DNA of 64,000 nucleotides from Calditrichaceae bacterium (GCA_013360445.1 JABWBP010000026.1:6389-70388); one strand, 5' to 3'. Shown: positions 20,182 to 36,274, counted from the first letter of the stretch. Numbers and translations: made by a program. The notes: generated by a model from the letters alone, not told the origin.

Positions 20182-20265
20182 GAGCTGATCACACTTGTTG
20201 CGAAATATTAATTTTGAGCCGGCTTGTTCAAAAATCGGCCATGAATCCAATCCCGGAAGGACGGG

Positions 20266-20329
20266 AAACACGAATAGAAACAAACGATTTCTGAAAAACC
20301 CATTCGTGAAAATTCGTGTGCATTCGTGG
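20266..20329. repeat. Stutter repeat: cacgaat ... (c)attcgtg x3
   Basis: cacgaat at 20266-20272, then cattcgtgaaaattcgtgtgcattcgtgg at 20301-20329. Overlaps the possible 5' end of the next gene. Confidence 0.6.
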
Positions 20330-21748
20330 CTTTTTTCTTGTTTTGCAACAACCCCATTGTTCCTGCTTCTCCAACTCATATCCATCCTTTTACTCATGAA
20401 TCCGGATTCGCTGATGGCTCAACCTGATCAACCCGACCGCCAGGAGCGCTACCTGCAAACCGCAACTGCCTTTGTGGAGAAAGCGCTGACAGAACAAAAA
20501 GGCTATCGCTGGCTGGGAGAGCTTTGCGAAATCGGCCCGCGGCTGAGCGGTTCCGAAAACTCCCTGAAAGCGATTCACTGGGCGAAGGCCAAAATGGAGG
20601 CGCTGGGCTTCGACCGGGTCATTTTACAGCCGGTAATGGTGCCCCGCTGGGTGCGCGGCAAAGTGGAGGAAGCCCGCGTCATCGAATCGGCGCGCGTCAA
20701 AGGCAGAAAACTCGCCGTTACCGCGCTGGGCGGCAGCATCGCCACGCCGCGGGAGGGGATTAGCGCGGAAGTGGTGGAAGTAAAGGATTTTGCGGAGCTG
20801 GCCGCCTTAGGCGAGAAAGCGCGCGGCAAGATCGTGTTTTTCAACCGCCCCTTTGCGCAGCAGCTCACCAATACCTTTGCCGGGTACGGAAAAACCGTGG
20901 ATCAGCGGGTATATGGCGCGGTGGAGGCCGCCCAGGCCGGGGGCGTGGCGGCGCTGGTGCGCTCGGTGACCACGCGCTATGACAACGTGCCCCACACCGG
21001 CAGCGTGAACTACCGGGAAGGGGTTACGCAGATACCCGCGGCCGCCATCGGGCAAATCGACGCCGATTTCCTTAGCGCCGCGCTGAAGCAAGACCCCCAC
21101 CTGAAAGTGCGCCTCAAACTTTCCTGCCAGACCCTGCCGGACGCTCAATCCTACAACGTCATCGGCGACCTGCTCGGCTCGGAATTCCCGAAAGAGTACA
21201 TCGTGCTGGCCGGGCATTTTGATAGCTGGGACAAAGGCTGCGGGGCGCATGACGATGGGGCCGGCTGCCTTCAGGCGCTGGAAGCGCTGGATTTGTTCAA
21301 ACGGCTGGATTTGCGCCCCAGGCGCACTCTTCGCTGCGTGTTTTATATCAATGAAGAAAACGGCATCCGCGGGGCGCTGAAATACGCCCGGGAGGCCGAC
21401 AGCCTGGGTCTCAAACACCTCGCCGCCATCGAATCCGACCGCGGCGCCTTTGCGCCCCGGGGATTCAGCGTGGAGGGAGATTCCGCGGTGATCGCGCGGA
21501 TGAACGCCTGGCTGCCCTACCTGCAGAAAGCAGATATCGAATGGGTGAGGCCGGGCGGCAGCGGGGTGGATGTCTCCCAGATCAAAAACGCCAAAGCCCT
21601 GATCGGCTACGTGCCCGACAGCCAGCGATATTTCGATTTTCATCACTCCGACAACGACGTTTACGAAGCGGTAAATCCCCGGGAAATGCAGATGGGGGCG
21701 GCGGCCATGGCCATATTGGCGTATCTGCTGAGTGAAGAAGGGTTATAA
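20306..21748 (+). CDS. M28-family metallo-aminopeptidase (secreted)
   Basis: Zn-ligand block GHFDSWDKGCGAHDDGAG. The start is uncertain. GTG 20306 gives a signal-like MKIRVHSWLFSCFATTPLFLLLQLISILLL. Alternatives are ATG 20396 and the track start 20195. Confidence 0.75.
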   Translation: MKIRVHSWLFSCFATTPLFLLLQLISILLLMNPDSLMAQPDQPDRQERYLQTATAFVEKALTEQKGYRWLGELCEIGPRLSGSENSLKAIHWAKAKMEALGFDRVILQPVMVPRWVRGKVEEARVIESARVKGRKLAVTALGGSIATPREGISAEVVEVKDFAELAALGEKARGKIVFFNRPFAQQLTNTFAGYGKTVDQRVYGAVEAAQAGGVAALVRSVTTRYDNVPHTGSVNYREGVTQIPAAAIGQIDADFLSAALKQDPHLKVRLKLSCQTLPDAQSYNVIGDLLGSEFPKEYIVLAGHFDSWDKGCGAHDDGAGCLQALEALDLFKRLDLRPRRTLRCVFYINEENGIRGALKYAREADSLGLKHLAAIESDRGAFAPRGFSVEGDSAVIARMNAWLPYLQKADIEWVRPGGSGVDVSQIKNAKALIGYVPDSQRYFDFHHSDNDVYEAVNPREMQMGAAAMAILAYLLSEEGL

Positions 21749-22448: not shown

Positions 22449-22538
22449 TTTTAATCATCCCTGTTTGCAGCCCTGGCTTTGGGGGCAATCTTAACTCCTC
22501 TTCAAACAGCGGAAACGGCCAGGCAAACCGGAGAAATC

Positions 22539-24785
22539 ATGCACCAACCCCCCGTCACCTTGACCCTCGCGCTCCAGCACGGTTTGAGCGAGGAAGAGTT
22601 CGAGCGCATTCAAAAAATCCTCGGCAGAACCCCCAATTTTACCGAATTGGGCATTTTTTCGGTCATGTGGAGCGAGCACTGCTCCTATAAAAATTCCATC
22701 GCCGAATTGAAGAAACTGCCCCGCTCCGGCGGGCGCCTGCTGGTGAGCGCCGGGGAGGAGAACGCCGGGCTGGTGGACATCGGCGGCGGTCTGGCGGTCT
22801 GCTTCAAAATCGAGAGCCACAACCACCCCTCCGCGGTGGAGCCGTACCAGGGCGCGGCTACCGGGGTAGGCGGGATCATGCGCGATATTTTCACCATGGG
22901 CGCCCGGCCCATCGCGGCGCTCAACTCCCTGCGCTTCGGCCGGCTGGAAAACGCCCGCAACCGCTATCTCTTCGACGGGGTGGTGCGCGGAATCGCCGAT
23001 TACGGCAACTGCTTAGGCGTTCCCACCGTCGCCGGAGAGGTTTATTTCGAAGACTGCTACGACGGCAATCCCTTAGTCAACGCCATGACCGTGGGCATCG
23101 TGGCGCAACGGCAAACCGCCTCGGCCATTGCCAAAGGGGATGGCAATCCGGTCTTCATTATCGGCTCCCGCACCGGGCGGGACGGCATTCACGGGGCGAC
23201 TTTCGCCTCCGAAGAACTCTCCGAAGATTCCGAAGCCAAACGCCCCAACGTGCAGGTGGGCGACCCCTTCGCGGAAAAACTGCTCTTGGAAGCGACCTTA
23301 GAGATGATTCAGGCGGGAATTTTGGTGGGCATTCAGGATATGGGCGCGGCGGGCATCACCTGCTCCACTACGGAGATGAGCGCCAAAGGCGGCAGCGGAA
23401 TGATCATCGACCTCGACAAAGTGCCGGTGCGGGAAGAGGGGATGAGCGCTTACGAAATCATGCTCTCCGAATCCCAGGAGCGCATGTTGGCGGTGGTAAA
23501 AAAGGGGTGCGAAGCGGAGGCCCGGGCAATTTGCGACAAGTGGGACCTGCTCTGCGCGGAAATTGGCCGGGTCATCGCTGAACCGCTCTTGAAAGTGTTC
23601 TACCGGGGCGAGCAGGTCGCCGAAATCCCGCCTCACGAATGCGTATTGGGCGGCGGCGCGCCGGTGTACCATCGCGAATACCGTAAACCCGCTTATATCG
23701 ACGAAGCGCAGCGCTTCGATTTTTCCACGTTGCCCGCGGTGGAAAATCTGCAAACTGCCTTTCTGAAAGTGTTTTCTTCCCCCAACGTCGTCTCCAAACA
23801 CTGGGTTTACGAGCAGTACGACACCCAGGTGCAGGCCAACACCACCCTGCTGCCCGGCGGAGACGCCGCGGTGGTGCGCATCCTCACCCCCGATGGCAAG
23901 GATACCAACAAAGCGATTGCCGCCAAAACCGATTGCAACGGGCGCTACGTGTACCTGAATCCCCGGCGCGGGGCGCAAATCGCCGTAGTGGAATCCGCCC
24001 GCAACGTGGTTGCGACCGGCGCTCAGCCCCTGGCCGTCACCAACTGCCTGAATTTCGGCAATCCCTACAAGCCGGAGATGTTCTACCTCTTCCGGGAAGC
24101 GGTGGCGGGCATGGGGGAGGCCTGCCGGGCGCTGGAAACCCCGGTTACCGGCGGGAACGTCAGTTTTTACAATGAAAGCCCGGAAAATGCGGTTTATCCC
24201 ACTCCCACCATCGGAATGGTGGGGCTGGTAGAAGACCTCGCCCACCTTACCCCGGCGTATTTCCGGCAGGAAGGCGATTTGATTTATCTGGTCGGTGAGA
24301 CGAAGGCGGAAATCGGCGGAAGTGAATTTCTCAAAGAATATTACGGCTTAGTAACCGGCGACATTCCCTCGCTGGATTTGGAGTTGGAAAAGAAAACCCA
24401 GCAGGCCCTGCTGGCCGCCATTCGCCGGGGCTGGATTCGCTCCGCGCACGACGTTTCCGACGGCGGCCTGGCTGCGGCGCTGGCGGAGTGCTGCATCATC
24501 AACCGGGAAAAACCCTCAGGCGCGACGGTGAAGGTGGATTTTGGAGCGATGCGCCCGGAATGGTTTTTGTTCAGCGAGAGCCAGTCGCGCTTTATCGTTT
24601 CCGTTTCAGCGGAGCACCGCAAGGGATTGGAAACATTTTTCAAATCTCAGCTACTGCCGTTAACCTACCTGGGGGCAGTGGGTGGAAAGCGACTGAAGAT
24701 CAACGAGGTGCTTGATCTTCCCCTTGAGAAGTTGAGCGAGATTTATTTTGAGACGATGGGAAGAATGATGGAGACGGAAGCTTAA
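22539..24785 (+). CDS. purL: Phosphoribosylformylglycinamidine synthase subunit PurL
   Basis: ATG 22539 preceded by ggaga (track start 22479). Motifs [14 protein letters not shown] and [21 protein letters not shown]. About 748 aa. Confidence 0.9.
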
Positions 24786-24794
24786 CGTTCGTGC

Positions 24795-25178
24795 TCAGGC
24801 AAGAGTTATCAGCCCGTTGGAAAAATCAATCGTTAGCGTCCGGCCTTGCAAAAAGTCTAAACCTAAGGCTCCGTCAACGCCTGCACTGGCTGGCAGCGTA
24901 TGGCACAGGACGGGAAAACCTTTCTTTTCCTGTCCCAAAGCCGTGATCTTTTGTAAGGTAACGCGTGGCACGAACTCAACGCCGCTGCCGGTAGTGACCT
25001 GGAAACGTTCCTCCTCCAGCGCCGGATCATAACCGATTGATACCAGCATTCCCACGTTAATCAAAGTGCTCGTCGCACCCGTGTCGAGCGCCAGTTGCAA
25101 AACAGCATTTCCAGAAGGCCCTTCCAGTTCTGCGCGCACGGTGATAAGTCCATACTGGGGATCGAACGGAAAGCTCAT
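24795..25178 (-). CDS. Retropepsin-like (clan AA) single-domain aspartic protease
   Basis: 127 aa. Active-site LALDTGATSTLIN (DTGA). The C-terminal GLDFL...LTIDF is typical of bacterial retropepsin-like proteins. Confidence 0.7.
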   Translation of the reverse strand: MSFPFDPQYGLITVRAELEGPSGNAVLQLALDTGATSTLINVGMLVSIGYDPALEEERFQVTTGSGVEFVPRVTLQKITALGQEKKGFPVLCHTLPASAGVDGALGLDFLQGRTLTIDFSNGLITLA

Positions 25179-25402
25179 AAGACAATAGCAGTACCTTCGG
25201 GAATCGTGCCGGTATAGAGCATGGCAAAACGTTTAGATCGTAACTTTACCGCTTCACGATATACCTCGTCGCGATCCTTGCTGTGAAAGCGGACTTTTCC
25301 ACCTCTTACTTCCAGTAACTCATCCGTTTGCGGCTCTTCGACTAACACCCATTCCGAATCGTACAGCGCTTTAATTTCTGCAATGGTCAATACTTCATCC
25401 AT
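25175..25402 (-). CDS. Small protein partner of the retropepsin (DUF5678-like, tentative)
   Basis: 75 aa. Its stop overlaps the protease start by 4 bp (ATGA at 25175-25178). It has its own RBS (aaggagaaaa) and a possible promoter, TTGCCC-17-TATATT on the minus strand. Confidence 0.5.
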   Translation of the reverse strand: MDEVLTIAEIKALYDSEWVLVEEPQTDELLEVRGGKVRFHSKDRDEVYREAVKLRSKRFAMLYTGTIPEGTAIVL

Positions 25403-25487: not shown

Positions 25488-28400
25488 TCATTTTTCCCCT
25501 CCCCCGGATTTTTGCAGCGAAAACATCCCCAAAAATTTGGCCATGGCCGGGATCAGGGCGGCGATGGTGGTCAGCACGGTAATGGTGGTATTGATCAAAT
25601 CGCGCTGGGTAGTGAACAGAAAGCCCACCCCCACGATCAACGCCAGCAGCAGGGGGCCTTTCACGGAATTCCAGCCCCCGGGGGTTCCTTCTTCGGCAAG
25701 GTCTTCCGGGCGGTAGGCGGCGGCGATAAAGCGCCGGAAACTTTCATTCATCAGCCGGATGAAGGGCTTCTGCACGATCAACCGCTTGCGCAGCAGTTGC
25801 TGCACCACCGGCGCGTTGCTGGAATTTACCATCCCGTCTTCCGCTAAATGGATCAGCGCCAGCCGTTCCGGCCCATTGCAGGCGTCCCACAGAATTTTGT
25901 AGAACGAGTAGGCGCGCACCGCCACTTCGTGAATCAGTTGATCCGCGGTGAGCCGGCTGCAATCGAGTTGCTGCACGATTTCGCGGCCGATTTTTTGTAA
26001 ACGCGAATTGGCCCCGCACTCCTGCTCGAATGCTTCCACCAACCGGTTCCGCGCCTTTCGCTCGGATTTCACCCGGGTGTTTTCCCTCCCCGCCCAGACT
26101 TTTTCCCGGAAAATGGCCGCGGTGGCGGCAAATTCGCTCGCATCCCCGCGGTCCTCCAGGTAAACCTGGTCGAAATGGCTGAGCAGCCGCGCCCAGCGGG
26201 AAATATCTTCCCGGGTTATGGATTCTGTTTTCTCCCCCGCATTCGCGGGCGGGCCGGCAATCTCTGAATCCAGGTAAGGAAGGGGATCCAGCGCGGAAAG
26301 GATTACCACGGTGCGGCGCTCCCGGTGCACCAGGCGCTCCAGCAGGGCCAGGATTTCCCGGTTGGGAAGGTCCGGATCGAAACGGGTCTCGAAGTGATCC
26401 AACACCAGGGGAATCGCGCGATCTTCGGGTAAACGCAGATCCGCTAAAGCGCCCCCTGCGGGGGAAGCGGTTTCGGCCAGGTCGATCAAATGGAAATCAT
26501 CGCGCTCCTTTTTCCGGGCTTCTAACAGCTCGCTTTTACCGGATACCGGGGGAGCCAGCACCAACAGATTCCGCCGGAAATTCAGGTTTCGCAACTCCCG
26601 CAGGGCGGGGTTGCCGGGGCGGTAAAATTCAAGAAAAACGATACGCTGCGCCACGAAGCGAAACACCAGGTACTGGACGGCTATGATGGCCGCCAGACCC
26701 ATCCACCATAAAATATCCCAATAGAAACCGGCGCCCGGCAGGGCGGTAGCGATGGCCAGGCGCTTCCGGGGAGCGCTTTCATAGGTTAATTTTAAGAAAT
26801 CGCCCTCCCGCAGGGGCACCATGGCAGTTTTCCAGGAACCGTCTTCGGAGGAATCGGGAATCAATCCGCGAATCTGGGCGGAGGTCAAATTGTACGGAGG
26901 CCGGAGAAAAGCGAGCACCTGTTTCAGGGTCAGGTTTACCAGAAAGGGGGAGGCCTCCTCCGGAGCCAGCAGTGAATCTGCGGTTACGATGCGGGAAGAA
27001 AAGAAAAATTTGAAATAGCGCCCTAACGAGTCCGCCAGTGCCTGGCGCTCCTGTTGAATGGGGGCGCGCAGCGCCGGATCGACCTTCAGGCTTTGAATTT
27101 CGGCGCGCGCCCGGGCGTCGCCGGCGAGCATTTTTTTCGCCATATCGAACTGCTCGTGCTTGATAAATAGTTCCACCTCATAGTCGGAGGCGATCTTGAA
27201 AAAGGCGATGGAGGGCAGTATGGCAACGATGATTACCAGCAAAGTCGCCATTACGATGAACCAGGTTCGGTATCCGAAGAGCTGGGTTTGCTTAAATCGC
27301 CGGGAAACCTCCGGCAGCGAAAGGAACAGCGCCATTCCTGCCAGCCCCCCGCACTGTACCAGGGTGCGCCAAAAAGAGGCGTGCAATAACGAAAATACCA
27401 TCAAGAGGATCAGAATTGCCCCTAACACGGAGTATCCTAAAATCCGTTGCCATTCCGGGAGATTCCCGGCCGCTCCCGGTTGGCGGCCATGGGATTTGGA
27501 GGAGGCTATTTCAAATTTCATGTCCCGCAGTTTCAAATAACTGAGCACCAGCACGAAATAGGGCAGCAATACCGCGGTGTAGAGGTTTTCTAAGGGGCGG
27601 GAGATGAATATCCAGATCAAAAAGAGCGCGATGAGAAAGAGAAACGCAATAGCCATCTGGCGATAGAAGCCGCTCAGGGCCGGTTCCGGCCACAGCCACT
27701 CCGCGCGGTAGCCGGGGCTGAAGATGCGCACAGCGCCCAAAATCAGCAAAAAGAGCGCGGCGTAGGCGATAAACAGCATCAGGGTAATGGTGATGATCTC
27801 CAGGTTGCCGGTACGGATGAAAACCATGTCGCAAAAGGTGACCAGGGTCCAATCCAGCTCTCTTGCGCCGGCCGCCCCGGCGGCGCTAAACGGGCGAATG
27901 TAAACCCGTTGATCCTTGCCGGCGTATTTCACCGTCTCCCACTTGGCGGTATGCCCGAACAGCGCGGAAACCAGCCCCTTGTTATTTTCGCACTCTTCGA
28001 TAAAGTTCTCCCGCAGGTTGCGCCGCTCATCGGAATGGAACAGCACCTTGCCGCTGCGGTCGATGACGCAGAATCCAAACCCGGCCGGAACCACCGGGCG
28101 GAGCAGGGACAACTGGCGGATGATCATGCTGGCCACGGTGATGGAATCGCGGGCGGCAGGCTCTTTTCCCGGGGCAGCCACGGCGGTCCATTTTCGCGCC
28201 GGAAAGGGCTTGGAAAGAATGACTTCATTTTTCCCGGTCGTCCAGGAATAGATCGATTCCACCCAAAAACCCTCTTTTTTGCCGTTTACCATTTTGAAGT
28301 AGGGGCGATCCCGCACGTTGATGTGCGAGGTAGTTTGATCCCCGGTGCTCCATTTGACGATCTGTTCGCCCCGGGAATCGATCCACACCGCCAGGTTAAA

Positions 28401-29741
28401 AAAAGGATAGCGCAGCGAAGCATTTGCGGCCGCGACACTCCCGCGCTCCCGGGGCGCTTCCCAGATATCCGTGGCGGAGAGTTTGTTTCTGAGAATTCCG
28501 CGATAAGCAAGGTCAAAAATGGCGTTGAGGGTATCCAACTGGGCAATGCCGCGCTCCAATTCCGCCCGGAAATTGGCGGAAACCTCGGCGGAGAAGTCCC
28601 GAAGCTGGCGATCCAGTTCCTGCTTATAATTCCGGTAAAACCGCCAGTCCAGCACGGAGACGGTTAACAGCGCCGCCCCGACCACCACGGATAACGCTAA
28701 AAAAAGCACGTCGGAGGTGCGCAAGCGGTCTTGGGGGCCTATTTTCCAGATTTTTAACAGCGGCCAGCTAATCGCGGTAAGGAGCGCCAGCAGTAAAAAA
28801 ATGATGATGAAATTATAGGAGATTGCGTGCGTTTCGGCGCGGAAGCGCTCGTTTGCGACCAGCGCGCACAGGCTCCATTCCACGTATTCGGGAGCATTGG
28901 AAGCGTTCTCCCCCGGGGGATTCTGCAAAAAAAGCTGCAAGGGTTGGATGAACAATTTGTAGTGGGTTCCTCCGAAGCTTGCCGCGGCGGTGTTGCTGGT
29001 GTGAATCAGGTCGGTCAATTTATAGGATTTGCCCCGGGGATCGCTGAGCGTTTCCAGATCCGTGGCCGATATTTCTTTGCCCCCCTTCTGGAAAATTACC
29101 TCTCCGCTGGAACGGGTTACCAATACGTCATCGAATATTTCCCGGCTCAGAATCGGCTGGAACAGCTCATCCAGGTTGCTGCGGGCGCGAATGGTAATGC
29201 GAACCTCCCCGCCGTTATTCTCGAAAACTCCCTGGTAGTCGTAATGAATCCAGTTCTGTTTCCCCTCTAAAAGAATGTGATGGGTAATGCGGTAATGGCC
29301 GGTTTGCTGGTGAATCCAGGAATAGTCCTCCCCGGAATGCTCCCCCGCCGGTGAAGAAGAATCTTTTCCCCCGGCGGGAATGGCAGCGGTTGCCGAAATT
29401 GGCTGCGGTGAGCGGAGAGCCGCGCTGTGCAACAACTCCACCGCCGGGGCAAGTTTCAGCTTGGAACGAATAATTGCGTTCACGCTGTCGGAGAAATTGG
29501 CCGCGTTATAGTTATTCCGCGCGGCGTGGCCGGCGGCATTGTGCAGAACCGTGATGTGGTTCTCGATTTTAGATTTTATCTGGTCGCCCAGGTCCTTGAG
29601 CACGCGCAGGTTGCGCCGGGTATGTTCAACCTCCTGGGAGGGAACATAGAAGACAAAATAAACCGCCACCGGGACGGCCAGGAGCAACAGCGGAAAATAT
29701 GAAAACTTAAGGCGGCGAACCGCGGCAAATGGCTTGATCAT
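25488..29741 (-). CDS. 1417-aa polytopic membrane protein: two extracytoplasmic domains (the second Cache-like) + cytoplasmic STAND-like P-loop NTPase
   Basis: About 12 hydrophobic helices. Extracytoplasmic blocks at aa ~34-315 and ~378-700; the latter has the Cache-like VRDRPYFKMV...SWTTGKNEVILSKPF. Walker A is LVLAPPVSGKSELL and a Walker B candidate is IPLVLDHFE, followed by TVVILSALDP. A helical/winged-helix-like tail (ERLALIHLAEDG) and two final TM helices follow. Confidence 0.7.
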   Translation of the reverse strand: MIKPFAAVRRLKFSYFPLLLLAVPVAVYFVFYVPSQEVEHTRRNLRVLKDLGDQIKSKIENHITVLHNAAGHAARNNYNAANFSDSVNAIIRSKLKLAPAVELLHSAALRSPQPISATAAIPAGGKDSSSPAGEHSGEDYSWIHQQTGHYRITHHILLEGKQNWIHYDYQGVFENNGGEVRITIRARSNLDELFQPILSREIFDDVLVTRSSGEVIFQKGGKEISATDLETLSDPRGKSYKLTDLIHTSNTAAASFGGTHYKLFIQPLQLFLQNPPGENASNAPEYVEWSLCALVANERFRAETHAISYNFIIIFLLLALLTAISWPLLKIWKIGPQDRLRTSDVLFLALSVVVGAALLTVSVLDWRFYRNYKQELDRQLRDFSAEVSANFRAELERGIAQLDTLNAIFDLAYRGILRNKLSATDIWEAPRERGSVAAANASLRYPFFNLAVWIDSRGEQIVKWSTGDQTTSHINVRDRPYFKMVNGKKEGFWVESIYSWTTGKNEVILSKPFPARKWTAVAAPGKEPAARDSITVASMIIRQLSLLRPVVPAGFGFCVIDRSGKVLFHSDERRNLRENFIEECENNKGLVSALFGHTAKWETVKYAGKDQRVYIRPFSAAGAAGARELDWTLVTFCDMVFIRTGNLEIITITLMLFIAYAALFLLILGAVRIFSPGYRAEWLWPEPALSGFYRQMAIAFLFLIALFLIWIFISRPLENLYTAVLLPYFVLVLSYLKLRDMKFEIASSKSHGRQPGAAGNLPEWQRILGYSVLGAILILLMVFSLLHASFWRTLVQCGGLAGMALFLSLPEVSRRFKQTQLFGYRTWFIVMATLLVIIVAILPSIAFFKIASDYEVELFIKHEQFDMAKKMLAGDARARAEIQSLKVDPALRAPIQQERQALADSLGRYFKFFFSSRIVTADSLLAPEEASPFLVNLTLKQVLAFLRPPYNLTSAQIRGLIPDSSEDGSWKTAMVPLREGDFLKLTYESAPRKRLAIATALPGAGFYWDILWWMGLAAIIAVQYLVFRFVAQRIVFLEFYRPGNPALRELRNLNFRRNLLVLAPPVSGKSELLEARKKERDDFHLIDLAETASPAGGALADLRLPEDRAIPLVLDHFETRFDPDLPNREILALLERLVHRERRTVVILSALDPLPYLDSEIAGPPANAGEKTESITREDISRWARLLSHFDQVYLEDRGDASEFAATAAIFREKVWAGRENTRVKSERKARNRLVEAFEQECGANSRLQKIGREIVQQLDCSRLTADQLIHEVAVRAYSFYKILWDACNGPERLALIHLAEDGMVNSSNAPVVQQLLRKRLIVQKPFIRLMNESFRRFIAAAYRPEDLAEEGTPGGWNSVKGPLLLALIVGVGFLFTTQRDLINTTITVLTTIAALIPAMAKFLGMFSLQKSGGGEK

Positions 29742-30271: not shown

Positions 30272-30491
30272 CTGCCAGGAAGCGATTTCTCGATAATCTT
30301 GCCAATTCAGGGATGGCGGATCTTCGCACCGCACCCCCCGGTTTTGACCCGCTTTTCTGCATATTCCTTCCTGGCGTTCGATTTCACCGAAAATTTCCGT
30401 GGAATTACGGGACTGCGCTGCCCCGGCGGCATGTTTTTCCCACCCGGGCAGTTCCTTACCAAACTCTATTGAAAAATGCGGGAGAATAACC

Positions 30492-31748
30492 TTGAAAATC
30501 TTACCCTTTCTCTTCTTGTTTGTTTTGATCCCCGGCTTGATTTCCCTTTCTGCCCAAACCGCCCTGCCGGATACCGCCTCCCGGGAATCTGCCCCTGCCC
30601 CGGCCGCGGAGAACCTCGGCGATGCGGCGCTGGAGGCGGAGCTGGCGGAGCAGTTGGGCGCGGAGGCAGATACAACCGCCGCAAAACCGCAAAGCTCTCC
30701 GGCGCTTCAGGGCAGCCAGGCTCGCCCGGGCGGGCTGCTCAATCCCCAGATCAGCGCCATCGGCAGCTTTGTGGCCGCCGGCACCGAAAAAGAAGCGGTG
30801 GTAAAACCGCTGAACCTGGGGCTTTCCGAGGCGGAATTCTCCTTCCAGGCGTACGTGGACCCTTACAGCAGGGCGGATTTCTATTTCGCCTTCGGCAGCG
30901 AAACCGAGGACCCTTTCCTGGGGCCGGATTCGGAAGCCGCCGCCAGTGGAGAATTTGAGGCAGAGTTGGAAGAGGCGTACCTGACCATCCTTTCGCTGCC
31001 GTTCGGTTTGCAAATCAAAGCCGGCAAATTCCGCAGCAATTTCGGGAGAATCAACCCGGTGCATCCCCACGCCCTGGATTATATCGACTACCCGCGCATG
31101 TATGTCAACTACCTGGGCGGGGAGGGCCTTTCCGACAAGGGGGCGGCCCTGAACTGGCTGATCCCCAATCCGCTCGATTTTTACCAGGAATTGAGCCTCG
31201 AGGTCACCTCCGCGGCGCTGGATGGTCCCTCGTTCCAGGGGGGCAGCAAACATTTGCTCTACCTGGGGCATTTGAAGAATTTTTTCGATCTGAACGATAA
31301 CACCACCCTGGAACTGGGACTGAGCGGCATTTACGGCCCCAACAATGCCGAAGGCGACAAAACCGCCATCGGCGCGGCGGATTTGACCCTGATCTGGAAA
31401 CCGCTGCGCTACAACCGCTATCGCAGCTTTGCCTGGACCACCGAGGCGCTGTTCAGCAACCGGAAAATGCCCGGGGAAGAGGTAAACAGCTATGCGTTAT
31501 ACAGTTTTATGCGCTACCAGATCGGGCGGCGCTGGTTTATCGGCGCTCGCTACGATTATTCGGAATTCCCGGAGCACAACTGCCGTAACGAGAAGGCTTA
31601 CTCCGCCATGCTGAATTTTTACGCCACGGAGTTTCAGAAAATCGAGCTGCAATTTCAGCACGGCGTTCCCGCGGAATTCGACAGTTTCAACCGGGTGCTG
31701 CTGCGGGCGGTGTTCGTGATTGGGGCGCACGGGGCGCATAAGTATTAG
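30492..31748 (+). CDS. Putative outer-membrane beta-barrel (porin-like) protein of the metal-uptake locus
   Basis: The track ORF starts at 30399. TTG 30492 follows a ggaga RBS and gives the signal peptide LKILPFLFLFVLIPGLISLSAQ. Alternating amphipathic strands and a C-terminal aromatic residue (…GAHKY). Family not recognised. Confidence 0.5.
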   Translation: MKILPFLFLFVLIPGLISLSAQTALPDTASRESAPAPAAENLGDAALEAELAEQLGAEADTTAAKPQSSPALQGSQARPGGLLNPQISAIGSFVAAGTEKEAVVKPLNLGLSEAEFSFQAYVDPYSRADFYFAFGSETEDPFLGPDSEAAASGEFEAELEEAYLTILSLPFGLQIKAGKFRSNFGRINPVHPHALDYIDYPRMYVNYLGGEGLSDKGAALNWLIPNPLDFYQELSLEVTSAALDGPSFQGGSKHLLYLGHLKNFFDLNDNTTLELGLSGIYGPNNAEGDKTAIGAADLTLIWKPLRYNRYRSFAWTTEALFSNRKMPGEEVNSYALYSFMRYQIGRRWFIGARYDYSEFPEHNCRNEKAYSAMLNFYATEFQKIELQFQHGVPAEFDSFNRVLLRAVFVIGAHGAHKY

Positions 31749-31795: not shown

Positions 31796-32752
31796 ATGCG
31801 ATTGAAAATGAATTTTTCGCGGATAACGGTTATTTTCTTTCTGGTAACCAGTGTTTTGGCTTCGTTGACGGGTTTGAAGGCCGGGGACAGGCTGCGCATC
31901 GTCACTACCACGCCGGACCTGGCCAGCATTGCCAATGAGATCGGCGGGGAGCGAGTGGAAACGTTTGCCATTGCCAAAGGCTACCAGGACCCCCATTTCG
32001 TGGACGCCAAGCCCAGTTACATCATTGAATTGCAGAAGGCGGATATGTTCATCCAGATGGGGCTGGATCTGGAAATCGGCTGGGCGCCGCCGCTGTTGGA
32101 CGGCGCTCGCAACCCGGATATTCTGCCGGGCGGAAAGGGCTACCTGGACGCCTCCGCGGGGGTTCCCCTGCTGCAAGTTCCCACCGGCGATCCGGCAACC
32201 CTTCGCGCCCAGGGGGACATTCATATCTACGGGAACCCCCACTACTGGCTGGACCCCCTGCGCGGTAAAATCATCGCTCGAAATATTTTTGGCGGGTTGG
32301 CGCGGCTTCAACCGGAAAACCGGGCGGAATTCCAAAAAAATCTCGATCTTTTCGATCAAAAGCTTGATCAAGAGATGGCGAAATGGGAAAAACAGATGCA
32401 GCCTTACCGGGGAACCAAGATCGTGGCCTTCCACAATAGCTGGCCCTACTTCGAGGAGCGTTTCGGGCTTCAGATTGTGGGATTCATCGAGCCGAAGCCG
32501 GGCATCCCCCCCACCCCGAAGCACCTGGTGGAGGTCATCAAAACCATGCAGGAGCAGGGTGTTAAAATCATTATCATTTCCCCCTACTACAGCCAAAAAT
32601 CTTCCGAGCTGGTGGCCTCCAAAACCGGGGCGAAAGTACTGGAGTTGGCTACCTCCGTGGAGGCTTTCCCGGGAATCAACGATTATTTCGCTTTATTCGA
32701 TTACAACCTCGGGAAAATGCTGCAAGCGTTTCAGGAAAGTGGAAATAATTAA
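31796..32752 (+). CDS. Metal (Zn/Mn) ABC transporter substrate-binding protein, ZnuA/TroA family
   Basis: 318 aa. Signal peptide, KGYQDPHFVDAKPS, GDIHIYGNPHYWLDP and FHNSWPYF blocks. Confidence 0.85.
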   Translation: MRLKMNFSRITVIFFLVTSVLASLTGLKAGDRLRIVTTTPDLASIANEIGGERVETFAIAKGYQDPHFVDAKPSYIIELQKADMFIQMGLDLEIGWAPPLLDGARNPDILPGGKGYLDASAGVPLLQVPTGDPATLRAQGDIHIYGNPHYWLDPLRGKIIARNIFGGLARLQPENRAEFQKNLDLFDQKLDQEMAKWEKQMQPYRGTKIVAFHNSWPYFEERFGLQIVGFIEPKPGIPPTPKHLVEVIKTMQEQGVKIIIISPYYSQKSSELVASKTGAKVLELATSVEAFPGINDYFALFDYNLGKMLQAFQESGNN

Positions 32753-33056: not shown

Positions 33057-33108
33057 CATAATGACGGCAAAACCAAATGACTTTTTGTTTCAACAGGAGA
33101 GTTGTTCA

Positions 33109-33942
33109 ATGTTCGAGATGTTCGGATTATCGTTTATCGTCAACGCCCTCATCGCCTGCCTGATCATGGGGTTTTTGTTAGGCTATTTTGGTATTCACGT
33201 GGTGGGAAGAGGCATCGTCTTCGTGGATTTGGCGCTGGGGCAGATTTCTTCCCTGGGAGTGGCCCTGGCCGAATTTCTCCACTACGGAGATGACTGGCTG
33301 CCGATCATTTTTACCCTGTTGGGCGCGGTGCTGCTCTCGTTCATCCACACCCGCGACCCGCGCATCAAATTAGAAGCGATCATCGGGATTATTTACGTGG
33401 CGGCTTCCGCGGTAACGGTGCTGATCATTTCCAAAAGCGCGCACGGCGACGCGGATATCCAGGAAGTGCTGTTCGGCGCGCTGCTGACTGTTTCCACCGC
33501 CGAGCTGGTAAAATTGGGCGTCGTTTTCGGCGTTCTGGCGCTGCTGCACGTGCTCTTTCGAAACCAGGTGTATCGCATTACCGAACGGATGCAAGCCGGG
33601 GAGATGGCTAAACCGGAGTGGAAAGACCAGACCTGGAACTTCTTTTTTTATCTCTCCATCGGGTTGGCGATTGTGTTTGCAGTGCGCATCGGCGGGGTGC
33701 TGCCGGTATTTGCCTACCTGGTGGTGCCGGCGGTCAGCGCCCTGATGGTTTCCCGGCGGCGCTGGATGATTATTCTCGTCGCCATGTTCAACGCCGGGGT
33801 TGCCAGCCTGGCCGGGCTGTGGTTTTCCTACACGTTCGATTTTCCCGCAGGCCCCGCGATCGTGGCTATGTTCGGAATTATTTTCCTCGGGGCAGTTATG
33901 TATCGGCTGTTTTGGCCGAAAATGGTTAAATCGGTGCGATAG
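33109..33942 (+). CDS. Metal ABC transporter permease, ZnuB/TroCD (ABC-3) family
   Basis: ATG 33109 after an aggaga RBS (track start 33061 lies inside the palindrome). Polytopic, about 8 TM, typical ABC-3 length. Confidence 0.85.
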   Translation: MFEMFGLSFIVNALIACLIMGFLLGYFGIHVVGRGIVFVDLALGQISSLGVALAEFLHYGDDWLPIIFTLLGAVLLSFIHTRDPRIKLEAIIGIIYVAASAVTVLIISKSAHGDADIQEVLFGALLTVSTAELVKLGVVFGVLALLHVLFRNQVYRITERMQAGEMAKPEWKDQTWNFFFYLSIGLAIVFAVRIGGVLPVFAYLVVPAVSALMVSRRRWMIILVAMFNAGVASLAGLWFSYTFDFPAGPAIVAMFGIIFLGAVMYRLFWPKMVKSVR

Positions 33943-34171: not shown

Positions 34172-34744
34172 ATGTCCAAGTCCATCTGTGTGTTTAGCGC
34201 CTCCAGCAACGCTATTGATATAAACTATTTCAAATTTGCCCGCAAACTGGGAGAGGAAATCGCCCGGCGGAAATATACCCTCATTTTCGGGGGCGGCGAG
34301 GTGGGGTTGATGGGGGCGGTGGCTGCGGGAGTGCGCAAAAATGGCGGCGCCATCGTGGGGGTGATTCCCAAAGCCCTGAACCAGCCCGGCATCGCTTACC
34401 GCGACGCCGACCACCTCATCGAGACCCGGGACCTGCGCCAGCGCAAGGCGATCATGGAATCCCGCGCGGATGCCTTTTTCGCCCTGCCGGGCGGTTTCGG
34501 CACCTTAGAAGAGAGCTTAGAAATCATTACCCTGAAGCAGCTTCGCCTGCTCGACAAACCCTTCGTATTTTTGAACGTGAACAACTTTTACGAGCCGTTG
34601 ATCGCCTTATTCGAGTATCTCTACCAGGAGAGATTTGCCAAACAGCACTTCCGGCAGTTGTATTTCTTTGCCAAAACCATTGAAGAAGCATTCGAATACT
34701 TAGACAATTACCAGCCGGTGGAATTGGAAGCGAAGTGGTTTTGA
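34172..34744 (+). CDS. LOG-family nucleotide phosphoribohydrolase (TIGR00730-type)
   Basis: 190 aa. GGGEVGLMG and PGGFGTLEE motifs. Confidence 0.85.
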   Translation: MSKSICVFSASSNAIDINYFKFARKLGEEIARRKYTLIFGGGEVGLMGAVAAGVRKNGGAIVGVIPKALNQPGIAYRDADHLIETRDLRQRKAIMESRADAFFALPGGFGTLEESLEIITLKQLRLLDKPFVFLNVNNFYEPLIALFEYLYQERFAKQHFRQLYFFAKTIEEAFEYLDNYQPVELEAKWF

Positions 34745-35091: not shown

Positions 35092-35203
35092 CCGATAAAA
35101 CCTCCCGGAACTTCACAATCTCCCGCAGGTTTGGTATATCTTTCCGTTATTGGATTTGCAGGCATTCATGTTTATTATGCCACCAAAAAAACGGGGAAGG
35201 AAT

Positions 35204-36274
35204 ATGGCGTTGAAAATGAAAGGAATGAAATGGGTGCTGGTTCTTCTGCTGCTCGTGGCGGCTCTGGCGCTCCCGAAGCTGCTGGTCTCCGGTAAAAATC
35301 CATCCGGCAGACCGGCCGGCGGCAGCCAGCAAAACCTGTTAGCGGTGCAGGTACGGGTGGTTCAGCCGAAATTATTGCAAAATAGCATTCGCACCACCGG
35401 AACTTTACTGGCCAACGAAGAAGTGGAATTGCGCAGCGAAGCGACCGGCAAAGTCACCGGCATTTTCTTCAAAGAAGGCAGCCGGGTGAGCAAGGGCGAT
35501 TTGCTGGTCAAGATCAACAACGCGGATTTGCAGGCGCAATTGCAAAAGCTGCAATTTCAGAAAGAGTTGGCGGAGGAGCGGGAGTTCCGCCAGCGCAAGC
35601 AGTTGGAAACCGACCTGACCAGCCAGGAGCAGTACGACATTGCCCTGAACGCTCTCAACGGCGTAAAAGCGGATATCGAAGTGGTGGAAGCGCAGATCGC
35701 CAAAACCGAAATCCGCGCCCCCTTTGACGGGCAGATCGGCTTGAAATACATCAGTGAAGGCAGCTATCTTTCCCCCGCGGTCAAAGTCGCCAACCTTCTC
35801 AATATCCATCCCATCAAAATCGAATTTTCCATCCCGGAAAAGTACGCCACGGAGGTGCAGCCCGGGGATAAAATTTCCTTTACTATCCAGGGGTCGAGCA
35901 ACACCTACGAAGGCGAAATTTACGCCATCGAGCCGAAAATCGACCCCCTCACCCGTACCTTGCTGGTGCGGGCGTTATCCCCAAATCCCCGGCGAACCCT
36001 TTATCCCGGGGCGTTCGCAGACGTGCAGTTGATCAGCGAGCAGATTCCCAACGCCTTGCTGATCCCTACCGAGGCGGTGATACCGGAGCTGAACGCCAAA
36101 AAAGTGTTTCTCTACAAAAACGGCAAAGCTACCTCTATGGCTGTAGAAACCGGCACACGTACCCCGGAAGAAATTCAAGTTACCAGCGGAATAGCCGCCG
36201 GGGATACCGTGATTACCAGCGGAACATTACAACTGCGGCAGGGCATGCCGGTGAAAATTTCGGAACTAAGATAA
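35204..36274 (+). CDS. RND efflux periplasmic adaptor (MFP/HlyD family)
   Basis: ATG 35204 gives MALKMKGMKWVLVLLLLVAALAL. Coiled-coil segment, IRAPFDGQIG block, C-terminal barrel. Confidence 0.8.
   Translation: MALKMKGMKWVLVLLLLVAALALPKLLVSGKNPSGRPAGGSQQNLLAVQVRVVQPKLLQNSIRTTGTLLANEEVELRSEATGKVTGIFFKEGSRVSKGDLLVKINNADLQAQLQKLQFQKELAEEREFRQRKQLETDLTSQEQYDIALNALNGVKADIEVVEAQIAKTEIRAPFDGQIGLKYISEGSYLSPAVKVANLLNIHPIKIEFSIPEKYATEVQPGDKISFTIQGSSNTYEGEIYAIEPKIDPLTRTLLVRALSPNPRRTLYPGAFADVQLISEQIPNALLIPTEAVIPELNAKKVFLYKNGKATSMAVETGTRTPEEIQVTSGIAAGDTVITSGTLQLRQGMPVKISELR

Follow-up and report, generated by a model that had tools for sequence, protein, structure and literature searches.

The gene described here lies in a 64,000-nucleotide stretch of DNA (the window) from a Calditrichaceae bacterium (GCA_013360445.1 JABWBP010000026.1:6389-70388), and positions are counted from the first letter of that stretch. 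It is an uninterrupted minus-strand open reading frame (ORF) at 25488-29741, made up of 1417 codons and a stop codon. Its product is a predicted membrane protein with sensor-like domains outside the cell and a P-loop module inside it. The ATG start is at 29741 with GAGG just 5' of it, and the N-terminus can be aligned with homologues from the first residues onward. The plus-strand translation of the same interval is riddled with stop codons. Full-length homologues of 25-92% identity are found in many phyla; the ORF is therefore no chance product. A sequence-only reading, made earlier, had reported a single uninterrupted ORF here together with four motifs, and all of these are present. The Cache block motif VRDRPYFK...SWTTGKNEVILSKPF corresponds to residues 477-514 and VVILSALDP to residues 1145-1153. 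Translation of the exact coordinates places the Walker A motif APPVSGKS at residues 1063-1070 (nucleotides 26532-26555) and the Walker B-like LVLDHFE at residues 1112-1118 (nucleotides 26388-26408).

Domains and membrane topology of the protein

Membrane topology was predicted by rule, from a 19-residue hydropathy scan and the charge bias of lysine and arginine (K+R) over a 99-member family alignment whose members all share at most 50% identity. The scan gives 11 clear transmembrane (TM) helices, at residues 15-33, 311-329, 345-363, 649-667, 696-714, 720-738, 767-785, 828-846, approximately 1008-1030, 1360-1380 and 1385-1405, and a weaker one, TM8, at approximately 790-808. All 12 segments are hydrophobic across the family, with a median 17-residue hydropathy of 1.7-2.7. 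The N-terminus, the C-terminus and the TM2-3, TM4-5, TM6-7 and TM8-9 loops carry a K+R excess of +1.3 to +2.5; residues 364-640 and 847-1003 have neutral or negative flanks. The first extracytoplasmic domain (ECD1) departs from the charge rule, its N-terminal flank being at +2.0. The predicted topology has 12 TM helices and a cytoplasmic N-terminus, with residues 34-310, 364-640 and 847-1003 outside and the P-loop module (residues 1038-1359) inside. From the N-terminus, the features of the protein are:

29643-29699, minus strand: TM1, residues 15-33, N-terminus cytoplasmic (hydropathy 2.16; family N-terminal K+R bias +2.2)
28812-29642, minus strand: ECD1, residues 34-310, a long helix and then two beta-rich PAS/Cache-like lobes (AlphaFold2 secondary structure; hhalign)
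28653-28811, minus strand: TM2-TM3 hairpin, residues 311-363, with a conserved cytoplasmic turn, P327, K330 and R339 (hydropathy, conservation, charge bias)
27822-28652, minus strand: ECD2, residues 364-640, dCache_1 sensor domain (Pfam, Pfam matches of homologues, Foldseek)
27204-27809, minus strand: six-helix bundle TM4-TM9, residues 645-846 (hydropathy, AlphaFold2 model, conservation, charge bias)
26733-27203, minus strand: third predicted extracytoplasmic block, residues 847-1003 (AlphaFold2 secondary structure, topology parity, charge bias)
26631-26732, minus strand: TM10, residues 1004-1037 (approximate), running from outside to inside with an Arg-rich cytoplasmic end (family median hydropathy 2.46)
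26142-26630, minus strand: P-loop alpha/beta domain, residues 1038-1200, with Walker A, Walker B-like and beta4 VVILSALDP (AlphaFold2 model, Foldseek, motif co-retention)
25875-26141, minus strand: helical (lid-like) domain, residues 1201-1289, with conserved E1241-C1242, Y1281 and W1285 (AlphaFold2 model, conservation)
25707-25874, minus strand: winged-helix-like segment, residues 1290-1345, 'ERLALIHLAEDG...LLRKRLIV...RLMNESFRRFI' (conservation; helix-helix-wing-helix in the model)
25521-25664, minus strand: TM11-TM12 C-terminal hairpin, residues 1360-1407, with conserved T1378-Q1379 (hydropathy, conservation, charge bias)

The sequence-only reading had counted about 12 hydrophobic helices, which agrees with this prediction, and had placed TM helices on both sides of a cytoplasmic P-loop domain, where TM10 and the TM11-TM12 hairpin are indeed found. 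Both of the extracytoplasmic blocks that it described are predicted to lie outside, and residues 847-1003 are now added as a third. This block had been described as a loop of about 190 residues; it measures 157 and is predicted to be extracytoplasmic. TM7 and TM8 (residues 764-812) are jointly absent in approximately one third of the alignment. They are lost as a pair, so orientation parity is kept, and the family is predicted to comprise 10-TM and 12-TM versions sharing one orientation. The TM4-5 cytoplasmic loop contains a conserved WLWP motif (W684, P685).

Among the extracellular sensors of prokaryotes, Cache domains are the most common; the outputs known for them are kinases, signalling domains of chemoreceptors, cyclases, phosphodiesterases and phosphatases. 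The only Pfam match of the 1417-residue protein is to dCache_1 (PF02743), at residues 371-512 of ECD2 (27.4 bits, E 3e-6); it covers the profile partially and falls below the gathering cutoff of 45. Five homologues also match dCache_1 below threshold, one of which (P0009) spans profile positions 6-239 of 240 at 40.1 bits. Residues 1-700 were modelled with AlphaFold2 from a 16-sequence alignment, giving a mean predicted local distance difference test (pLDDT) of 72 and a predicted template modelling score (pTM) of 0.62. In this model ECD2 is a double PAS-like fold behind a long N-terminal helix, between TM3 and TM4. The model has 70 Foldseek matches in the PDB at E<=1e-3, and the 50 listed are nearly all Cache/PAS-type ligand-binding domains of sensors. 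Among those listed McpH comes first (1e-7), then TlpA, Mlp24/37, DctB, KinD and PctA, with E-values of 1e-7 to 1e-5. The dCache matches have target-normalised TM-scores of 0.5-0.7 across approximately 270-300 columns. As modelled, ECD2 is a full dCache_1 domain with a sub-threshold Pfam match. The amino-acid-binding Cache motif, which we take to be R-x-W-Y, reads R-P-Y-F in this protein by eye.

Profiles derived from the 99-member alignment were compared using hhalign. Residues 188-269 of ECD1 align with residues 541-619 of ECD2 at a probability of 93% (E 3.6e-7); ECD1 is therefore PAS/Cache-like as well. The Cache assignment in the sequence-only reading concerned the second block, where Foldseek bears it out, and it can be extended to the first. 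AlphaFold2 extends TM9 into the third block as a 60-residue helix, and adds to it a return helix and a small beta-sheet; the block belongs to no recognisable family. We considered it as a further Cache domain and rejected this, as it is similar to neither ECD1 nor ECD2 by hhalign.

The remainder of the protein, residues 640-1417, was modelled from a 17-sequence alignment (pLDDT 69, pTM 0.53). The pLDDT is approximately 75-87 across the P-loop and helical domains, 56-78 in the winged-helix region and poor for the last 70 residues; confidence is low for the TM11-TM12 hairpin. The order of elements in the P-loop domain is beta1 (LLVL), the P-loop, alpha1, beta2 (HLID), beta3 (LVLD, Walker B), an alpha helix, beta4 (VVILS), an alpha helix and beta5. 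These are followed by approximately six helices, the helix-helix-wing-helix segment and the TM hairpin. One PDB structure matches the module at E<=1e-3, ClpX at 5e-4. The top 50 Foldseek matches are mainly AAA+ proteins (ClpX, Hda, ORC/Cdc6, RuvB, RFC/Ctf18, dynein, Skd3, Sir3, ATAD1, NSF and p97), including a DnaC-like initiator with a target-normalised TM-score of 0.49, and the secretion ATPases PilT and VirB11 are also among them. The E-values of these matches run from 5e-4 to 3e-2 with high root-mean-square deviations. In the AAA+ motif test the protein has both Walker A, AxxxxGKS, and Walker B, LVLD(1115)HFE, the latter being atypical in that its second acidic residue is at +3. Our interpretation is that the module has a P-loop domain of a divergent ASCE/AAA+-like type and a helical lid, and we have moderate confidence in the modelled P-loop fold. 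The structural model and structure search proposed in the sequence-only reading have recovered both the Cache and the weak P-loop/AAA+ matches.

The module had been called STAND-like. There is no STAND protein in the Foldseek top 50, no match to NACHT, NB-ARC or AAA_16, and an Asn replaces the expected His; we regard the label as a lead, not a result. The order P-loop, helical and winged-helix domain in the model fits the STAND order, with low confidence for the winged helix. The winged-helix domain of NB-ARC proteins carries an MHD motif (PMC10586772). By eye and without structural superposition, RLMNESFRRF resembles this motif, with 'MNE' in place of 'MHD'.

Family distribution and the nucleotide site

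The architecture of the 1417-residue protein appears to be undescribed, though it is made of parts of known kinds. Pfam, NCBIfam and PADLOC contain no model for it as a whole, and a search of the literature on Cache plus P-loop/STAND architectures found nothing relevant. The sole name carried by database relatives is 'cache domain-containing protein'. The earlier statement that this is not a described family still holds, there being no full-length match to any described family.

When the C-terminal module was used as the query of an exhaustive profile search, 3651 clusters (formed at 50% identity) were retrieved at E<=1e-3, and 1708 of these reach E<=1e-30. Most are 1250-1490 residues long and have the same layout, with the module at the C-terminus. 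A word-indexed search had returned 18 clusters, or 2 with the C-terminal profile; given the exhaustive result this apparent rarity is an artefact. For so divergent a family, judging rarity by the indexed search alone would mislead badly. Shorter members of 320-900 residues were considered as stand-alone C-terminal modules, but most begin mid-domain and look like contig fragments.

Genome and metagenome scans found members in Calditrichaceae, KSB1, Brocadia, Nitrospira/Nitrospiraceae, Acidobacteriota, Thermoanaerobaculia, Verrucomicrobiota and Bacteroidia. The phyla represented include Nitrospirota, Planctomycetota (Brocadia), Acidobacteriota, Verrucomicrobiota, Calditrichota, KSB1 and Bacteroidota. 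The closest orthologue (locus L001, Calditrichaceae) is 92% identical. No relative was found in viral contigs. Four loci have two adjacent ORFs in place of a single family gene (L016 9716-13294; L017 and L034 9258-12805; L038 3116-6162), with lengths of for example 255 + 927, 335 + 752 or 523 + 498 residues. These could be frameshifts, assembly errors or pseudogenes.

Conservation is uneven along the protein. It peaks in the winged-helix-like segment, at RLMNESFRRF, and the TM hairpins come next. In bits per column of the 99-member alignment, the values are:

winged-helix-like segment: 2.20
TM2-3: 1.77
TM11-12: 1.76
dCache (ECD2): 1.51
P-loop domain: 1.16

The pair E1241-C1242 in the helical domain (nucleotides 26017-26022) is kept in at least 85% of the 99 members, and it contains the sole conserved cysteine of the protein.

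The Walker A motif reads GK[ST] in 28 members, only K[ST] in 16, and is lost in 55. The Walker B Asp is present in 26 of the 28 that keep GK[ST] and in 32 of the 71 others (Fisher p=8e-6, uncorrected for phylogeny). Retention of Walker A is also coupled to D1152 (Fisher p=1e-3, again uncorrected for phylogeny). The co-retention of these three elements points to a coherent nucleotide site where they are kept, and this includes the window protein, which has all of them. Other positions are kept whatever the status of the P-loop: E/D1118 in 96 of 99, S/T1149 in 90 and N1332 in 98. The simplest reading of the alignment is that the ancestor of the family bound nucleotide, that the site is still coherent in the clade of the window protein, and that the function shared by the whole family would lie in the scaffold of winged helix, hairpin and cytoplasmic turn and not in hydrolysis. 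An oligomerising NTPase switch had been proposed from the sequence. As a family-wide mechanism it fails, given the 55 members without Walker A; it is plausible for the window's clade, which has kept Walker A together with the Walker B Asp and D1152.

Gene neighbourhood and sigma-54 activators

The genes around the receptor gene in the window are:

20195-21748: M28 peptidase gene
22479-24785, plus strand: purL
24795-25178, minus strand: retropepsin-like ORF of 127 residues (PF13975 and PF13650)
25175-25402, minus strand: ORF of 75 residues overlapping the retropepsin-like ORF, co-oriented with the receptor gene and downstream of it
30399-31748, plus strand: ORF of 449 residues with a signal-peptide-like N-terminus and no Pfam match
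31796-32752: ZnuA
33061-33942: ABC-3
34172-34744: LOG-family gene (Pfam Lysine_decarbox, PF03641)
35150-36274: HlyD-like gene

The neighbours named in the sequence-only reading (purL, a metal-uptake locus and a co-oriented retropepsin-like cassette) are all where it put them. It had also described the surroundings as an accessory-looking gap; the locus proves to be compositionally native and syntenic in close relatives. The proportion of guanine plus cytosine is 0.52-0.60 throughout the gene and its flanks. Recent horizontal transfer was rejected on the grounds that the composition is like that of the flanks and synteny with L001 is kept, and a phage origin on the grounds that viral contigs hold no relatives. 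The 449-residue ORF and the receptor gene are oriented divergently, and the ORF precedes the zinc-uptake genes ZnuA and ABC-3. L001 conserves it at the corresponding position, and its product may belong to the metal-uptake locus as an outer-membrane component.

The content of the slot between the receptor gene and purL differs among loci. In L001 (10505-10581) it is empty and the gene abuts purL. In L002 (12485-14537) it holds Septu PtuA/PtuB (E 4.5e-131 and 7.9e-86). The retropepsin-like protein that occupies it in the window matches the PADLOC candidate PDC-M08B (4.9e-12). We therefore regard the content as variable defence-type cargo and not as a partner of the receptor, and the slot resembles a small hotspot at which defence genes insert. 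Co-conservation of the retropepsin pair had been put forward as a check. The pair is missing from the locus of the 92%-identical orthologue and replaced by Septu in another, and it was rejected as a functional partner. When all ORFs of 39 loci were clustered, no gene was seen to accompany the family outside close relatives, and this is consistent with the receptor being self-contained.

Sigma-54 activators adjoin the family gene in six of the 39 loci, from at least three phyla (L005, L011, L013, L014, L024 and L030). The sigma-54 enhancer-binding proteins in these loci are encoded at:

L005, 12743-13804
L011, 9023-9955
L013, 6010-8745
L014, 113-1846
L024, 9032-9955
L030, 5964-7955

Those in L005, L011 and L024 are 'bare' activators, in which the AAA+ domain starts at residue 28-43 and there is no regulatory domain. 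In L011 and L024 the bare activator lies upstream and 4 bp separate it from the family gene; in L005 the two are adjacent. A sigma-54-type element, TGGTACGAGAATTGCG, is found 63-92 bp upstream of the family gene in the Nitrospiraceae-lineage loci L014, L030 and L033, and a variant, TGGTACAAGAATCGCA, 94 bp upstream in L038. Such matches occur in nine of 35 loci, compared with 2.8% of random 400-bp windows, several of the loci being related and so not independent. No such element was found upstream of the window gene, and no sigma-54 activator gene was found in the 64-kb window.

Possible function and comparison with known systems

We propose that the protein is a stand-alone transmembrane receptor, with tandem Cache sensors outside, a 12-helix core and a membrane-clamped AAA+-like module inside, and with a conformational or assembly output. 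We give this reading about an even chance. Ligand binding to the Cache domains would move the flanking TM helices, and this movement would be relayed to the cytoplasmic turn that the family conserves, as well as to the winged-helix segment and C-terminal hairpin. The relay would alter the conformation or self-association of the cytoplasmic module. In the window's clade, with the Walker A Lys, Walker B Asp and D1152 intact, the module is probably a nucleotide-dependent switch, like the NOD/AAA+ signalling ATPases; in most other members, where the P-loop has decayed, nucleotide would play no part in the action of this same scaffold. No enzyme domain provides the output, which would most likely be a protein-protein or intramembrane conformational one.

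Several points weigh against this reading. The AAA+ label comes from one medium-confidence 17-sequence model and from weak Foldseek E-values with large deviations, and the C-terminal hairpin and winged-helix segment are modelled at low confidence. No sequence method ties the module to any P-loop family. Searches of the whole protein against Pfam, NCBIfam and PADLOC gave nothing for it, and 30 separate C-terminal modules matched no AAA family in Pfam at E<=0.1. With phmmer and two family profiles, nothing in all PDB sequences was significant, the best being a de novo designed P-loop protein (E 0.14). An hhalign comparison with the AAA+ domain of neighbouring sigma-54 activators reached E 0.096 over the P-loop only. 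There is no conserved arginine finger or sensor-2 Arg, as no Arg reaches 85% within residues 1038-1289 of the 99 members. More than half of the members have lost Walker A, and the P-loop domain ranks with the least conserved regions; nucleotide switching is therefore not the core function of the family. Neither an output domain nor a partner was identified, so the signalling role is drawn from the architecture alone. Ligand control, nucleotide switching, oligomerisation and output are things that we only infer.

Three other explanations were weighed against that of a receptor. The winged-helix-like segment is rich in Arg and Lys and is the best conserved part of the protein, and sigma-54 activators, including bare ones, adjoin the gene in six of 39 loci. 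These facts could suggest a membrane-tethered transcription regulator, in which the winged helix binds DNA, as in ToxR and CadC, or the degenerate AAA+-like domain binds a sigma-54 activator and controls it. However, a recognition surface that is invariant across phyla, with no shared neighbouring target, counts against operator-specific DNA binding, and the segment is only about 15 residues from the TM hairpin. The window has no activator gene, and the sigma-54-type promoter preceding the family gene in Nitrospiraceae loci means that an adjacent activator may simply drive expression of that gene. We consider such a regulator rather unlikely. We also think it unlikely that the protein is a transporter or gated channel, with a permeation path through the 12 TM helices that is gated by the Cache domains and energised or gated from inside by the P-loop domain. 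The helices do contain conserved prolines and polar residues (P327, P727, P843, T1378, Q1379), the P-loop is intact in the window and the gene adjoins a Zn-uptake locus. However, that locus neighbours the gene only in close relatives, about a third of members do without TM7 and TM8, most members have lost the P-loop, and there is no ABC signature. Pfam and NCBIfam give no match to a transporter family, and there is no transporter among the top Foldseek matches of the module.

A role in defence seems quite improbable. The protein would then be a membrane-embedded NLR/STAND-type effector of abortive infection, in which triggered NOD-like oligomerisation makes the TM helices damage the membrane. 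The order of nucleotide-binding, helical and winged-helix domains and the 'MNE' at the position of the STAND 'MHD' (PMC10586772) agree with this, as do the patchy spread over phyla and the slot of variable defence cargo that the gene abuts (Septu in L002, a PDC-M08B-like protein in the window). Against it, the receptor protein has no match in PADLOC, and its module has no STAND protein among the top 50 Foldseek matches and no match to NACHT, NB-ARC or AAA_16. Periplasmic Cache domains sense extracellular small molecules and not phage components. The gene is syntenic and native in composition within its lineage and has no relative in viral contigs, its neighbours over the 39 loci are mostly housekeeping genes that differ by locus, and the P-loop is gone in most members.

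Returning to the receptor reading, a bolder form of it, which we hold to be possible but doubtful, is that the family is a new receptor class, in effect 'transmembrane NLR-like'. Tandem Cache sensing would be read out by a membrane-clamped NOD/AAA+-like module, the output would be self-assembly or a change in the winged helix and TM hairpin, and nucleotide dependence would have been lost repeatedly. Here Cache sensors are joined to a module which goes unrecognised by every domain library and has the look of an AAA+/NOD switch in decay. Should it be a signalling output, it would be a new branch of bacterial signal transduction, and the active and pseudo-ATPase members would form a natural series in which the loss of nucleotide dependence could be studied. 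Members of the family are common among nitrifiers and anammox bacteria, groups that are relevant to the environment and to wastewater treatment.

The closest known counterparts of the sensor half are the dCache_1 receptors, including the chemoreceptors PctA, Mlp24, TlpA and McpH, as well as the histidine kinases DctB and KinD. These have a periplasmic double-Cache domain flanked by TM helices, as is found here. Unlike them, the window protein has no MCP, HisKA/HATPase, GGDEF, cyclase or HAMP output. It has two Cache-type domains in series, each with its own TM pair, and after these two domains come nine further TM helices and the P-loop module.

KAP family P-loop NTPases are similar in that a TM-associated P-loop NTPase is predicted on the cytoplasmic face. 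KAP proteins carry TM helices inserted inside the NTPase domain, whereas in the window protein they flank residues 1038-1359, and PF07693 is not matched. A KAP identity is excluded on both grounds, and the contrast with the KAP arrangement that was drawn from the sequence is borne out.

The AAA+ initiators and clamp loaders (DnaA/Hda, DnaC, ORC/Cdc6, RFC) and ClpX have an alpha/beta core with a P-loop and, after it, a helical lid, as modelled here. The window protein has in common with them Walker A, the Asp of Walker B and a polar residue closing beta4. The module differs from them in having no sequence-level similarity and no conserved arginine finger, in its Walker B of hhhhDHFE and not hhhhDE, in being clamped to the membrane at both ends, and in the decay of the P-loop in most family members.

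In STAND/NOD proteins (NB-ARC, NACHT, MalT, Avs) the order is nucleotide-binding, helical and winged-helix domain, the same as in the model of the module. The most conserved motif of these modules is in the winged-helix domain and they have no arginine finger, which is also the case in this family. The acidic residue three after the Walker B Asp resembles the NACHT pattern, which we take to be DGxDE. In contrast to STAND proteins, the nucleotide-contacting His of the MHD-type motif is a near-invariant Asn, there is no sensor-1 Arg and no C-terminal repeat sensor, and sensing would be extracellular, via the Cache domains.

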